DNA of 37,894 nucleotides from a virus. Taxonomy: Duplodnaviria > Heunggongvirae > Uroviricota > Caudoviricetes. The notes beneath the pieces are model-generated. The model saw only the letters and a program-made list of their open reading frames with translations, was not told the DNA's origin and did not search any database. The first letter of the stretch is position 1. Every line of letters begins with the position of its first letter. Positions 6,302 to 37,894 of the stretch are shown here, piece after piece. The stretch lies in the IMG/VR virus record IMGVR_UViG_2606217109_000004; one strand, 5' to 3'. A program made the position numbers and the translations under genes.

Positions 6302-7384
6302 TTAGAACTGGTAAACCATACCTACAGCAACGATATCATCGGTAGCAACGCCAGATGCTTTCGTGAAATCGCTCTTATCAATCAGGTTGATTTTGTAATC
6401 AACAAAAGTGGACATATTTTTGTTGAAGTAATAGGTTGCACCTACATCAATATATTCAACCAGGTCCTGATCACCCCACGCACCCAAGTCTTTTCCTTTA
6501 GATTGCAGGTAAGCAACGGACGGACGCAGACCGAAGTCGAACTGATATTGTGCAACTACTTCGAAGTTTTGTGCTTTGTTGGCAATATGGTTATTACCAA
6601 AAACAGTCATGTTCTGGGTTTCAGAATAGGTGGTAGCCAGATAGATGTTGTTCGCATCATATTTCAGACCAGCTGCCCATACTTCAGCATTTTGACCAGA
6701 TGCATTCAGGCTGTTGTTACCGTAGATAACCTGATTATTAGTGCGGTCAGATTTAGCATAGGTTGCACCTACACCGAATCCTTCATACTCATAAGTAGTG
6801 GAGAAACCGAAACCATCACCATTAGCTTCAGTTACGTCAGTGCGGTCATTTTTACCCTGATACTGAGCAGCAAAGTTCAGACCATCAACCAGACCAAAGA
6901 AGTCGTTGTTACGATAAGTTGCAACACCAGTGGTGCGACCAGTCATGAACACATCTGTTTGGGTCCAGGTATCGCCACCGAATTCTGGCAGAACGTCAGT
7001 CCACGCACCGATGTCGTATGCTACACCGTAGTTACGGCCGTAATCGATTGAGCCGTAGTCACCGAATTTCAGGCCTGCAAATGCAAGACGGGTTTTGTCT
7101 TTGGAGGAACCTTGAGATTCAGCGCGGTTGCCTTTGAATTCATATTCCCACTGACCGAAACCAGTCAGTTGATCGTTGATTTGGGTTTCACCTTTGAAGC
7201 CAAGACGGGCATAAGTAGTATCACCATCATCTGCATCATTAGAGGAGAAGTAGTGCTTAGCATTAACTTTCCCGTACAGATCCAGCTTGTTACTGTCTTT
7301 ATTATAAATTTCAGCTGCCTGAGCAGACATCGCCATCAGTACTGATGCAGCTACAGCAGAAATTGCCACTGTTAATTTTTTCAT
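6302..7384 (-). CDS. nmpC: Outer-membrane porin NmpC (OmpC/PhoE family), apparently intact
   Basis: Translation [23 protein letters not shown]|AEIYNKD... with signal peptide and C-terminal ...VYQF typical of general porins; start taken at MKKLT (7384). Confidence 0.9.
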
Positions 7385-7811
7385 CGTGAGCCCTTTTTTT
7401 GAACTATTATTAAAAAATGATGTCACTGCGCGATAAATATTCATCTAATCAATGTGATTATTTCAAGATGTAAGTTTTGGTTTCTCATTTGATTTGTGAA
7501 GTAGATCTCTATTTTTATCTGAACTTTTTCTATCGAATCCTATTCATGGCTCTTGGCTGAATAAAAATAAATCTATTAGCCAATTTATATTAATGGCTGT
7601 TATTTATAAGTGCTCTATAATTTGAAGGTTCAATTTAAATCGGCTAAAAATAACGCTGGAAATTATTTGTTGGTTATTTGTTGAGATTTGCTTATGTATT
7701 TGTAGTGGTGTTTTCAATACTCGGTAGCATTCTCGCAAATATCATTTAGTGGTTTACGTACGTAAAAAATTGGTTATGCTGTTAAGAGTGGTTACTTCGT
7801 CACACAGCTTA

Positions 7812-26760: not shown

Positions 26761-30162
<3,402 letters not shown>

Positions 30163-30228: not shown

Positions 30229-30828
30229 ATGCGTAAACTTTATGCCGCCATTTTGTCCGCAGCCATTTGTCTGGCCGTATCCGGTGCGCCTGCATGGGCG
30301 TCTGAACATCAGTCCACGCTGAGCGCGGGGTATCTTCATGCCTTGACGAACGTTCCCGGCAGCGATGATCTTAACGGGATTAACGTGAAATACCGTTATG
30401 AGTTTACGGACACACTGGGGCTGGTGACGTCATTCAGCTATGCAGGAGACAAGAATCGCCAGCTTACCCGTTACAGCGATACCCGCTGGCATGAAGATTC
30501 AGTGCGTAACCGCTGGTTCAGCGTGATGGCGGGGCCGTCTGTGCGCGTGAATGAATGGTTCAGCGCGTATGCGATGGCGGGTATGGCTTACAGCCGTGTT
30601 TCGACTTTCTCCGGGAATTATCTCCGCGTAACTGACAACAAGGGGAAAACGCACGACGTGCTGACCGGAAGTGATGACGGTCGCCACAGCAACACGTCTC
30701 TGGCGTGGGGGGCTGGCGTGCAGTTTAACCCGACCGAATCCGTGGCCATTGATATTGCTTATGAAGGCTCCGGCAGTGGTGACTGGCGCACTGACGGTTT
30801 CATCGTGGGTGTCGGTTATAAATTCTGA
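30229..30828 (+). CDS. lom: Lom outer-membrane protein (Ail/Lom family beta-barrel)
   Basis: 199-aa ORF with signal peptide ([24 protein letters not shown]) and C-terminal ...GVGYKF; matches lambda Lom. Confidence 0.9.
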
Positions 30829-33800: not shown

Positions 33801-34291
33801 ACGGCATTAAATCGCATACCCACAGCGCCAGCGCATCCAGTACGGATTTGGGGACGAAAACCACATCGTCGTTTGATTACGGCACTAAATCCACGAATAA
33901 CACTGGTGCGCATACCCATAGTTTAAGTGGCAGCACGAATGCAGCTGGTAATCACAGCCATAGAGATGGCCGTCGATTTAACCCCAGTGTTTTTAAAGAT
34001 ACTTATCAATATGGTTATACAAGCTCAGGTCAAAATACCTGGGGTGTACAAGGCTCAGTAGGTATGTCTACGGGGTGGTTAGCTAATACCAGTACAGATG
34101 GTAATCATAGCCACTCACTGTCCGGCACAGCAGCATCTGCAGGTGCACACGCGCATACTGTCGGTATTGGTGCTCATACGCACTCCGTTGCGATTGGTTC
34201 ACATGGACACACCATCACCGTTAACGCTGCTGGTAACGCGGAAAACACCGTCAAAAACATCGCATTTAACTATATTGTGAGGCTTGCATAA
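30887..34291 (+). CDS. stf: Side tail fibre protein Stf, enlarged mosaic form
   Basis: N-terminus ([29 protein letters not shown]...) and C-terminal His-rich receptor-binding region match lambda Stf; central part is a long Ala/Ser/Thr-rich repeat tract plus a divergent lower-GC domain. Confidence 0.9.
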
Positions 34292-34872
34292 TGGCATTCA
34301 GAATGAGTGAACAACCACGGACCATAAAAATTTATAATCTGCTGGCCGGAACTAATGAATTTATTGGTGAAGGTGACGCATATATTCCGCCTCATACAGG
34401 TCTGCCAGCAAACAGTACCGATATTGCACCGCCAGATATTCCGGCTGGCTTTGTGGCTGTTTTCAACAGTGATGAGGCATCGTGGCATCTCGTTGAAGAT
34501 CATCGGGGAAAAACCGTCTATGACGTGGCTTCCGGCGACGCGTTATTTATTTCTGAACTTGGCTCGTTACCGGAAAATGTCACCTGGTTATCGCCGGAAG
34601 GGGAATATCAGAAGTGGAACGGCACAGCCTGGGTGAAGGATACGGAAGCAGAAAAACTGTTCCGGATCCGGGAGGCGGAAGAAACAAAAAACAACCTGAT
34701 GCAGGTAGCCAGTGAGCATATTGCGCCACTTCAGGATGCTGCAGATCTGGAAATCGCAACGGAGGAAGAAAACTCGTTGCTGGAATCCTGGAAAAAGTAT
34801 CGGGTGTTGCTGAACCGTGTTAATACAACAACTGCACCGGATATTGAATGGCCAGTAGCACCTATAGGGTAA
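34291..34872 (+). CDS. tfa: Tail fibre assembly protein Tfa
   Basis: 193-aa translation matches lambda Tfa ([37 protein letters not shown]...). Confidence 0.9.
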
Positions 34873-34965
34873 ATTCGTAATGATTACCTAAATACGTTAT
34901 TCTTTTGTTCAAAAAGTGATTTTGCTATAGGTAAGGAGTATGTTCTTGGATTAAGAATAAAAAAT

Positions 34966-34988
34966 CGCCATGAAAGAGCTTCATGGCG
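34966..34988 (-). terminator. Rho-independent terminator for a leftward transcript coming from the AT-rich spacer
   Basis: Perfect 9-bp stem CGCCATGAA / TTCATGGCG with 5-nt loop; on the minus strand it is followed by ATTTTTTATT. Confidence 0.5.
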
Positions 34989-35731
34989 AGTACATAAACG
35001 TACAAAATGTGATGAAAGTAGAGTGGCGTAAGCCACTATATTAAGATATGACAATAGCGAAGAAAAGTAAATAACATTTTATGGACGTTTAATTGTTAAT
35101 TATAAAAACTAGAGTGCCCGATATTGTTTATCTTGCTTTAAAATAATGTACTCAAACCAAATTTTTGAGCTAAAAGCTCAAATAATATAAATGCAATGAT
35201 AATGTTTAATAAGACAATTAGCTTGCTTTGTATTTTCATTTCGGAATACTGTTAAGTAACTTTGATGACCCTAACAATAGATCGGAATTTTCTTAGAGTC
35301 AATGGTCACTGTTTTTGCTTGCAAAGCAAATGTTTTGGTGGTTATAAGTTGTCTTAATATAGTCACGCATGCAACTTGTTCCATGCGGAGATTAAAGATT
35401 GGAATATAACGCGAAGATGGAATTAAATTACATTTGCAATAATCAATTTATTATTACTCAATAATTACCGATATTATTATTGTAAATTAATCATTAGAGT
35501 GCAAAAAGAAATGTAACGGCAAAATAAGAGGACGATAGCTGAGAAAAAAGCGTGCTTTCCCAATCTGGGGCAAATCACGTCTGAATGACACCTGAAAACA
35601 GGTGGTAGCCTCAAGAAGGCTTGGAATATTCTTCTTTAATGTTATGTAATTCATTGATTTTTCGTGTACGATTTTAAGACATTTATTCCAAGAAAAATTT
35701 TTAACTCTTTGATTTTTAGACTCTGTATCAT

Positions 35732-35793
35732 CGGTCTCGAAAACCGGAGTGGGGGCAACTCTACCGGGGGTTCAAATCCCCCTCTCTCCGCCA
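35732..35793 (+). other. 3' fragment (anticodon loop to CCA) of a tRNA-Ser(CGA) gene: candidate att core / prophage boundary
   Basis: CGGTCTCGAAAACCGGAGTGGGGGCAACTCTACCGGGGGTTCAAATCCCCCTCTCTCCGCCA equals the 3' ~62 nt of E. coli serU-type tRNA-Ser as I remember it (one mismatch); the 5' half of the tRNA is absent and replaced by AT-rich DNA. Confidence 0.75.
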
Positions 35794-36377
35794 CTTTATC
35801 AATGACTTATCTCCCGACTTCCCGCCTTGCTTTTCCTAAACAGAACAATCGTAGAATATTCTTGAAGGGTTAGATCGTCACTGTTTTCTGTTCGATACTG
35901 TGACATTCAGCACTTGATTCGCTATGGATCTGACAGGAAGGTTTTGAGCGAAAATTTGCAGTTATTCAGTCGTTTTCTTATCGGTCACCATTATTCTTTT
36001 AGACATTGATCCTACAAAGCTGCCGCAAAGTTGGTGGTGGGAACTGAAGTTGCGTAGAGAAGGGGTCAATACCCGGAGGCAAACATGGGCTGGCAAAAGT
36101 GTAGCGGTATTAGGCGCAGCTATTTAGCCTAGTTATGTTTTATGAAAACTTGATATCATATAAGTGTCTTACTTATTGGCTGTAAATAAGTTTTTCCTAA
36201 GGAATTGTTTCTTGAGTATCATTTGTAACTGTAACGGAATTTATAATCCTTTGCTTTATTGTTACGGTATTTTTTATCACACCCTATTTTTTATGTGGTT
36301 TTTTATACTGAAGTTTGGCAAAGTGAACTTTATATGCATATACTTCATCCTGGTTTCAGTTAAGTTGGGTGGATGAT

Positions 36378-37121
36378 ATGGCAACTACATGTTCAGTTAT
36401 ATTGATTTTGGAGTCCTTTGATGTTTATTTCGGAAAAGAGAGTGTGTTTCTGGAGAGAGGTTCATCTGTACTTGTCGACTCTAGCTCTAGAGATTTTTTC
36501 CTGACATATCCTGAAAGAGTGATAGTGGCGGATTTTGGCGCTGAGTTTATTAGTCGCTATTTGAAAGCTAATAACTTAAGGGATATTTCTGATTGTAGGG
36601 AATATCCATCTTATTTAAAAATAAACTTTGCTGACTTCAGTTTAATTAAAGGATTAATTAGTTGGGCTAATCACTGTGCTGAATACATAGAAATTTTTGA
36701 TGAGTCTATTGCTTTTACATGTCTCTCTGCATTTTCTTCTGAAAAACAATTTGGAGTATTTCTGTTTGAATGTTTGAAAAGCACAGGGGCTAAAGTTAAA
36801 ACGATTATTCATACGGATTTATCTGCACCATGGCGTCTTAAGGATATATCATCAAGATTATATCTCAGCGAAAGTTTACTAAAGAGGAAATTGAAAGAAG
36901 AGGGGGTATCATTCAGTAAGATCATACTTGATGAGAGGATGCAAATGGCTGAATATTTACTCAGCACTCGTTGTTATCCTATTAGTAAAGTAGCTAAGGT
37001 CTGTGGTTATGCCAGTGTCTCATACTTTACTTATGTATTTAGACGTTATTTTGGTGTTTCTCCAAGTCAATACTCTCAGAGCAGTTCAGAAAGTAAAATT
37101 CTTACTCACCAGGGAATCTGA
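36378..37121 (+). CDS. AraC/XylS-family transcriptional regulator (AppY/YdeO/GadX-like subgroup), AT-rich acquired gene
   Basis: 247-aa ORF with C-terminal double-HTH AraC signature (...SKVAKVCGYASVSYFTYVFRRYFGVSPSQY); GGTGGA ribosome-binding site before ATG at 36378; GC well below the phage genes. Confidence 0.8.
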   Translation: MATTCSVILILESFDVYFGKESVFLERGSSVLVDSSSRDFFLTYPERVIVADFGAEFISRYLKANNLRDISDCREYPSYLKINFADFSLIKGLISWANHCAEYIEIFDESIAFTCLSAFSSEKQFGVFLFECLKSTGAKVKTIIHTDLSAPWRLKDISSRLYLSESLLKRKLKEEGVSFSKIILDERMQMAEYLLSTRCYPISKVAKVCGYASVSYFTYVFRRYFGVSPSQYSQSSSESKILTHQGI

Positions 37122-37630
37122 TCATTGTTCTTGCCCCCTTATTTCCAGACAGGGGGTGTATCTTAAGTTAACGTTACCCGCTGACGTCGATATTCTCGCG
37201 GAGAGCGATAACCCAGCGCACTGTGCGGATGGTTTTCATTGTAATGTTCGATCGCCACTGCAAGATTATGCAATGCCGTTCTTACATTCGGTTTCGGCAT
37301 GAACGCGGTGTAGTCTTCCTTCATCGTTTTCACGAACCTTTCTGCCATTCCATTACTCTGAGGACTGCTGATTGCCGTTGTGCAGGGCTCCAGATTCAAC
37401 TCTCTGGCGAACTGCCATGTTTCATGCGCTCTATACGCTGAACCGTTATCTGTCAGCCACTGGATGGACTGTTCCGGTACTTTATCGCCAAAGCGTTTTT
37501 CTATCGCTCCTAACATGACATCCTGCACTGTCGCTTTATCGTAACCTCCCGTGCTTGCGGCCCAGTCTATGGCTTCACGATCGCAACAGTCCAGGGCGAA
37601 CGTAACACGCAGTTTTGAATCGCCACGGGT
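37122..37630 (-). mobile_element. IS3-family (IS2-like) element fragment: terminal inverted repeat plus 3' part of the orfB transposase; 5' part missing
   Basis: Minus-strand frame open from about 37630 to stop at 37163 encodes ...[38 protein letters not shown]...WLTDNGSAY...[11 protein letters not shown]...[19 protein letters not shown] (second D and E of the DDE triad); IS2-like end TTGCCCCCTTATTTCCAGACA at 37128-37150. Confidence 0.7.
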
Positions 37631-37678
37631 TTAACAGACACCTCAGAGTCATTTAAGATGGCTTAAAGAGAGGTGCCC

Positions 37679-37894
37679 ATGAGCGGTAAGCGTTATCCCG
37701 AAGAGTTTAAAACTGAAGCAGTCAAACAGGTTGTTGATCGCGGTTATTCTGTTGCCAGCGTTGCAACACGTCTCGATATCACCACCCACAGCCTTTATGC
37801 CTGGATAAAGAAGTACGGTCCGGATTACTCCACTTTTTCATCAAGCCAATCCGCCCACCACTGCATCATTTCTCTGCGCTTATCGAGATACTGA
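37679..37894 (+). CDS. IS3-family transposase OrfA (HTH protein), second IS copy, possibly frameshifted; cut by window end
   Basis: Translation MSGKRYPEEFKTEAVKQVVDRGYSVASVATRLDITTHSLYAWIKKYGPD... is a typical IS3-family OrfA N-terminus; RBS AGAGGTG upstream; C-terminal 20 aa atypical. Confidence 0.65.
   Translation: MSGKRYPEEFKTEAVKQVVDRGYSVASVATRLDITTHSLYAWIKKYGPDYSTFSSSQSAHHCIISLRLSRY

Follow-up and report, generated by a model that had tools for sequence, protein, structure and literature searches.

The window analysed here is a stretch of 37,894 nucleotides from a virus of the class Caudoviricetes (IMG/VR record IMGVR_UViG_2606217109_000004). The region of interest lies near its right end, where the 3′ part of a serine tRNA gene is set between phage DNA on the left and chromosomal DNA on the right, followed by a regulatory gene and the remains of several mobile elements. 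The features of this region are as follows, with positions numbered from the first base of the window.

34873–35731, + strand: phage-side arm of a serU-type attachment site (hereafter, P arm), an AT-rich spacer running from the tail-fibre assembly gene to the tRNA half
35732–35793, + strand: 3′-terminal part of serU, 62 nt long; common core of the serU attachment site (61/62 identity to K-12 serU 29–90)
35794–36071, + strand: captured chromosomal DNA of the serU-to-yodB stretch (B′ side), 278 bp (identity to native serU loci)
36072–36126, + strand: right-end scrap of an IS630-family element, 55 bp (match on plasmid pJNE23-001_1)
36378–37121, + strand: cargo gene for an AraC-family regulator, YdeO/GadX-like, of the PatE/Psr kind (NCBIfam match and identity to O157:H7)
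37163–37528, − strand: scrap of an IS2-like (IS3 family) transposase, C-terminal part (matching positions 172–289 of 301 in the NCBIfam profile for IS2 TnpB)
37673–37825, + strand: N-terminal scrap of an IS3-family OrfA, ISEhe3-like (annotated in strain 181.1 as 'transposase, missing C-terminus')
37825–37894, − strand: scrap of an integrase gene of the IntS/HK620 type, C-terminal part, truncated where the window stops (its counterpart in strain 181.1 is annotated as an incomplete CDS)

The sequence at 35732–35793, CGGTCTCGAAAACCGGAGTGGGGGCAACTCTACCGGGGGTTCAAATCCCCCTCTCTCCGCCA, aligns without gaps to positions 29–90 of the 90-nt serU gene of K-12 and departs from it at a single base (G for A at 35751). 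Its first base corresponds to the second base of the anticodon stem; it takes in the CGA anticodon, the variable arm, the T arm and the 3′ strand of the acceptor and ends with CCA, and the anticodon stem-loop (CGGT-CTCGAAA-ACCG) is intact. The first 28 nt of serU are missing, and unrelated AT-rich DNA is found in their place. Identity to the K-12 serU locus runs for 340 bp in all (35732–36071, 97%, E = 6e-164), into the DNA that follows serU, and the core match is for this reason far beyond chance. The original prediction had described a 62-nt half of tRNA-Ser(CGA), reaching from the anticodon loop to CCA, with AT-rich phage-side DNA in place of the 5′ half. The alignment to K-12 serU bears this out, coordinates included, and the G+C content of the DNA to the left of the core amounts to 28–36%.

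A search of the whole window with ARAGORN returned no tRNA, and no tRNA match in the window attains the Rfam gathering score. A permissive Rfam scan of positions 35600–35900 gave only sub-threshold look-alikes (an antisense plastid psbI-rps4 element, a tmRNA T arm and sX4), as expected for a partial tRNA. Assignment as a functional serU gene was considered and set aside: the part that is present matches (61/62), but the complete cloverleaf is absent. The 62-nt stretch is a gene fragment and makes no tRNA. Scanning positions 34800–36500 for promoters and terminators gave a background level of hits and no role for the fragment. Two substitutions, at 35726 and 35751, are private to the window. 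At the latter position, A is present in all other junction copies examined (10 loci and 30 viral contigs), and the only other G occurs in the intact, phage-donated serU at the attL of strain 492 (locus L009), described below.

The DNA on the left of the core is phage DNA. Positions 34873–36071 match E. coli strain 492 in one unbroken block of 98.7% identity, where they form the right end of a lambdoid prophage located at serU, and the last ~120 bp of the P arm (about 35612–35731) are kept in all type-A serU attR junctions, including those of strain A20 and phage SerU-LTIIb. This segment carries two copies of the direct repeat TAAyTCwTTGATTTTT together with an inverted pair, CTTGGAATATTC/TTTATTCCAAG; the presence of both direct and inverted repeats within an arm of ~120 bp is of the kind that would be expected for integrase arm sites. 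Further to the left, a full-length match to the Rfam family IS009 was seen at 34634–34832 (+ strand, 224.8 bits against a gathering threshold of 117). It falls wholly inside the 3′ end of the tail-fibre assembly gene (34291–34872), and this 'sRNA' family may simply be conserved prophage coding sequence.

On the right of the core, the 278-bp flank matches native serU loci at 97–98.8% identity. Of 5,426 complete E. coli genomes, 5,423 contain the match, a count that refers to the 340 bp as a whole, with the native serU position seen in the inspected records. K-12, which carries no prophage at serU, is among these genomes, and since 35732–36071 matches its serU locus and that of nearly all E. coli, the right flank is host DNA and not phage DNA. 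Among the matches listed, the nearest native flank is that of strain M160133 (98.8%), which indicates that the donor was an ordinary E. coli. The host homology ends between 36071 and 36072, with no yodB beyond it, and is joined to the last 55 bp of an IS630-family element, comprising the last 34 nt of the transposase gene and 22 nt beyond it as seen on pJNE23-001_1. The 36071/36072 junction is identical in all captured copies. These share the haplotype C, A and G at 36015, 36016 and 36019, where the native copies have T, G and A, and the common junction and single flank haplotype point to one capture event.

The regulator gene beyond the IS630 scrap has YdeO as its best NCBIfam match (2.1e-43, below the equivalog cut-off), and a promoter-like site lies upstream of it at 36315–36344. 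Its product is identical at 245 of 247 positions to that of the gene found beside the same module in O157:H7 strain Z1626, at ~0.31 Mb in O157:H7 genomes (an OI-8-like locus). PatE (z0321, OI-8) and the Psr proteins have been described as regulators that are encoded on prophages and switch on the GAD system of acid resistance, with gadE/hdeA as targets, and regulators of this group have been linked to both acid resistance and type III secretion (PMC10877973). The likeness of the window protein to PatE, PsrA and PsrB of EHEC O157:H7 is one of YdeO/GadX-like sequence class, and of sequence class only, together with the prophage location; it belongs to the neighbour of the serU fragment and not to the fragment itself. 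Probably, the gene is the orthologue of PatE in a viable lambda-like phage.

The three scraps that follow are all truncated. The counterpart of 37163–37528 is marked incomplete in the annotation of strain 181.1, and the last 74 nt of the window (37821–37894, − strand) are 94–96% identical to the int genes of HK620, CUS-3 and IME10. In relatives of the window, this integrase scrap lies directly before the lambda P arm and core. Judged by its sequence, it is a second relic of an earlier integration module.

Taken together, the segment around 35732–35793 has the full layout of an attR site, with a phage arm, a core and a host arm, the match to the native right flank holding only up to 36071. The same layout is seen in an extant prophage of strain 492. 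The prophage there is ~40 kb, and the gene order is mtfA, intact serU, a tyrosine integrase whose gene starts 27 bp after the tRNA, phage genes, J-lom-stf-tfa, 860 bp, the tRNA half and yodB-zinT. This is exactly the arrangement that integrase-mediated insertion into the 3′ end of serU is expected to leave, and it supports the original reading of the fragment as the signature of such an event. In strain 492, the two copies of the tRNA half differ in the variable arm, where attL has a compensated base pair, G...C in place of A...T, and attR the host version (L009 14779–14868 versus L007 6860–6921). The difference confines the crossover to the first 19 nt of the core, in the anticodon stem-loop, and as serU is rebuilt by the prophage with this change, the lysogen expresses a phage-donated variant of the tRNA. 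Both serU (Sp14 of Sakai) and ybhC (Sp3) are documented prophage sites (PMC8190617). The window shares with the attR of serU prophages (Sakai Sp14/CP-933U type, SerU-LTIIb and strain 492) the 62-nt core, the ~120-bp arm and the first 278 bp of the flank. It differs in that the junction is internal: chromosomal DNA gives way to phage cargo after 278 bp, and the relatives use lambda attachment sites.

The internal position is evident from phage genomes. Positions 34873–37894 are found wholly inside the genomes of ev099, mEp332 and PhiR70_1 at 99.2–99.5% identity, with the tail-fibre assembly gene on one side and a lambda-type attP and int on the other. Of these, mEp332 is a plaque-forming lambdoid phage with lambda immunity that has been kept as an MG1655 lysogen (PMC3442831); a particle origin is taken from the literature for mEp332 only, and ev099 and PhiR70_1 are taken as phages from their database records. 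The ev099 record is written from cos and has the stretch at 23.7–26.7 kb of 47.2 kb, followed by the integrase and excisionase, and the PhiR70_1 record is written from int to the end of the same stretch. In ev099, the lambda core GCTTTTTTATACTAA and lambda P′ arm are located at 26949, 223 bp past the equivalent of the window end, and are followed by int and xis.

A chromosomal counterpart is provided by strain 181.1, in which the same prophage lies between ybhC and ybhB-bioA, that is, at lambda attB. The attR core of this prophage (L001, 12122) is 228 bp past the equivalent of the window end and leads into ybhB-bioA; at the far end, lambda-type xis-int adjoins ybhC, and there is no tRNA-Ser. 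The window itself starts in the early region and ends ~228 bp short of the position expected for the core, and the 15-bp lambda core GCTTTTTTATACTAA is absent from it. We infer from these relatives that the present copy would belong to the lambda attB group.

Colinearity with ev099 extends over nearly the full length of the window, and that with PhiR70_1 over most of it. Homology to ev099 starts only at 1215, and the left edge of the window is occupied by a complete IS30-family transposase gene (1–1152, − strand, 383 aa, 3e-82), which indicates that the IS30-family element sits where the relatives have the immunity region. Two outer-membrane genes were noted along the shared backbone: a porin gene downstream of Q (6302–7444, − strand), OmpD/NmpC-like by its position in ev099 and PhiR70_1, and a Lom/Ail gene (30229–30828, + strand) after the tail-tip gene J (26764–30162). 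Both are typical lysogenic-conversion cargo of DLP12/lambda-like phages. An open reading frame of 674 aa (27364–29388, − strand), antisense inside J, is probably an artefact of composition.

With these comparisons in hand, the fragment can be weighed as a boundary. It had been proposed to mark the end of this prophage, which would then sit at a tRNA-Ser site rather than at lambda attB and have an intact tRNA-Ser and integrase at its other end. As a working attR of this kind, the anatomy would be perfect and the P arm is intact, and the window, stopping short of its own right end, gives no direct exclusion. However, the rightward DNA departs from the serU-yodB chromosome after 278 bp, and from there to the last base of the window it remains 99% identical to the internal b region of three phage genomes. 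All close relatives examined carry a lambda attP or attR and a lambda-type int. The relative in strain 181.1 contradicts both the proposed site, being placed at ybhC/ybhB-bioA, and the proposed far end, having int-xis there with no tRNA-Ser. A second copy of the core, which had been suggested as a check, was not found within the window when up to four mismatches were allowed. In every close relative, alignment sets the fragment apart from the present prophage ends, the end of the window's own prophage being beyond view. A working attR at serU, with chromosome or another island to the right, is very unlikely on this evidence.

The other proposal, that the fragment begins a second island extending rightwards in tandem (the AraC islet plus IS elements), draws on the cargo-like genes and IS scraps in that direction and fails on orientation. 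When an island inserts into the 3′ end of a tRNA gene, the intact tRNA stays beside the integrase, and the 3′ half comes at the opposite end, after the island DNA. In the window, genuine chromosomal DNA from downstream of serU comes after the half, which means that the element lies on its left. Moreover, the only trace of an integrase to the right within the window is the one 70-nt scrap, among transposase scraps, and the AraC/IS stretch travels inside phage genome records. We regard this arrangement as extremely improbable. The attP sites of tRNA-targeting phages also carry the 3′ part of the tRNA, and several phage records match the core alone (77–84 nt); the fragment could conceivably be such an attP, with phage DNA on both flanks and serU still usable. 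Against this, the right flank is what lies at serU in prophage-free K-12 and in ~5,400 genomes, and is a B′ arm rather than a P′ arm. Nor does a serU-type integrase follow, when on the true P′ side, as seen in strain 492, the integrase gene comes 27 bp after the tRNA. The likelihood of an attP is close to nil.

We consider instead that the 62-nt half is very probably the core of a fossil attR which, together with captured host DNA, is now internal cargo of a lambda-like phage and not a prophage boundary. A fossil attR of this sort is an ordinary evolutionary relic of a known kind. Its distribution bears on how the relic has behaved since capture. The captured module, taken as the core, the IS630 junction and the DNA up to the AraC start (35732–36368), is present as an unbroken stretch in 524 of the 5,426 complete E. 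coli genomes (~10%). It is found at the right ends of prophages at differing sites, namely at lambda attB in strain 181.1, beside a yagP fragment and paoD in strains PI24 and DS26-1, and in O157:H7. The junction between host DNA and IS630 was matched exactly in 30 viral contigs, and in none of the species representatives when one genome per species was scanned.

Two unrelated left arms abut the module exactly at the edge of the core. The arm seen in the window, of the tail-fibre-assembly type (P_A), is present in 8 of the 30 viral loci, and a GIY-YIG type (P_B) in the other 22. In some of the GIY-YIG-type arms, the last four bases ahead of the core are GGAC, and identity to serU is thereby lengthened to 66 nt (viral loci L014–L043). 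With a chimeric query, the P_B arm was found in strains MB15 and RMDEC332 as well, at genuine serU junctions that lead into yodB. As both arms are seen at the same captured module and at genuine serU junctions, an exchange of the arm has taken place at or within the 340-bp patch. SNPs are nearly lacking in the first 209 nt of this patch, for which reason the crossover is not placeable and exchange by integrase is not separable from homologous exchange.

Within the core, the first 38 nt, including the anticodon stem-loop, are unchanged in all 30 viral loci. The T arm is more variable: the T loop of the captured copies reads GGC instead of TTC in 8 of the 30 and GTC in two more, and two loci have a deletion and one an IS insertion, a T-arm deletion being seen in L014 and L016 and an insertion of ~1.35 kb inside the tRNA half in L020. 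The decay of the T arm, the deletions, the IS insertion and the private substitutions of the window fit DNA that is free of tRNA-like constraint, and we infer that the fragment has no present function.

Alternatively, the relic may still be used, with the core and P arm serving serU-type integrases, or the 340-bp chromosomal patch serving RecA, as a docking point for phages. A docking point could let unrelated serU phages gain a PatE-like regulator of acid resistance and virulence or enter resident prophages. Several observations would agree with such activity, including the meeting of two unrelated arms with the same captured junction exactly at the core edge, the presence of both arms at genuine serU attR junctions next to yodB, the constancy of the first 38 nt of the core in the viral loci while the T arm decays, and the intact P arm and anticodon stem-loop in every copy seen. 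There is also a precedent in STEC O121, for which att sites inside prophages have been reported (PMC8767318). However, homologous recombination among mosaic lambdoid phages accounts for the arm switch without site-specific activity, the SNP pattern cannot place the crossover, and the conservation of the 38 nt rests on few independent lineages. Among the loci examined, which are short, none contains a prophage inserted in the fossil site or the second core copy that would mark one. We therefore consider continued use of the relic as a docking point to be unlikely, and hold the same doubt over the transfer of regulators that would follow from it.

The history that best accommodates a passive fossil attR would begin with an ancestral lambdoid prophage inserted by its tyrosine integrase into the part of serU between the anticodon loop and the 3′ end. 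The right junction, with at least 278 bp of the adjoining chromosome, would later have joined a phage genome, either through imprecise excision of the lambda bio kind or through recombination of the serU prophage with another lambdoid phage. An insertion of an IS630-family element and a deletion may then have shortened the host segment to 278 bp and joined it with the AraC regulator. Simple imprecise excision would give a joint between host and phage DNA, and the joint here is between host DNA and the last 55 bp of the IS630-family element; the original host-phage joint, if any, is in this scheme overwritten by that element. The IS2 and IS3 scraps would have been added after capture, and the integration module would have been replaced at least twice, leaving first the IntS scrap and then the lambda attP and int. 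Today the relic occupies the non-essential 'b region', with the tail-fibre assembly gene on one side and the lambda-type attP/int on the other, where it would be packaged and inherited as passive cargo, and the working attachment site would be the lambda core just past the right end of the window.

Two known systems offer comparisons. In lambda bio phages, host DNA contiguous with attR is carried in a viable phage, to the right of the tail genes and b region, where bio sits. The window resembles these transducing phages in having attR-contiguous host DNA inside a packaged genome, mEp332 being plaque-forming, and in the position of this DNA in the genome. In contrast to lambda bio, only 278 bp of non-coding host DNA are left, the joint is to an IS scrap and not to phage early genes, and the integration module has since been replaced, as a result of which the phage is not defective; the capture route by which the likeness arose would be one of the two given above. 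The tRNA pseudogenes of K-12 cryptic prophages, ptwF (CP4-6), pawZ (CPS-53) and pauD (DLP12), are likewise displaced 3′ parts of tRNA genes that result from integrase-mediated insertion. Whereas those mark real chromosomal prophage ends, the fragment in the window is internal and is carried within phage genomes. Our incomplete coverage of the literature turned up papers on the serU site and on PatE/Psr, and no prior description of a serU fragment inside phage genomes.

The finding corrects a call of a prophage boundary, as a boundary drawn from the tRNA fragment alone would cost the prophage ~2.3 kb and place it at a wrong attachment site. It also provides a clean natural case of a temperate phage that bears a piece of an earlier host locus. 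In the relatives, three remnants of integration modules stand in a row at the right end, comprising the serU attR, the scrap of an integrase of the IntS type and the lambda attP that is in use. A cargo module with a PatE/Psr-like regulator, shared by about a tenth of complete E. coli genomes, can be conveniently tracked by the relic, and, if the relic were recombinationally active, it would offer a mechanism for the movement of this regulator between prophages.
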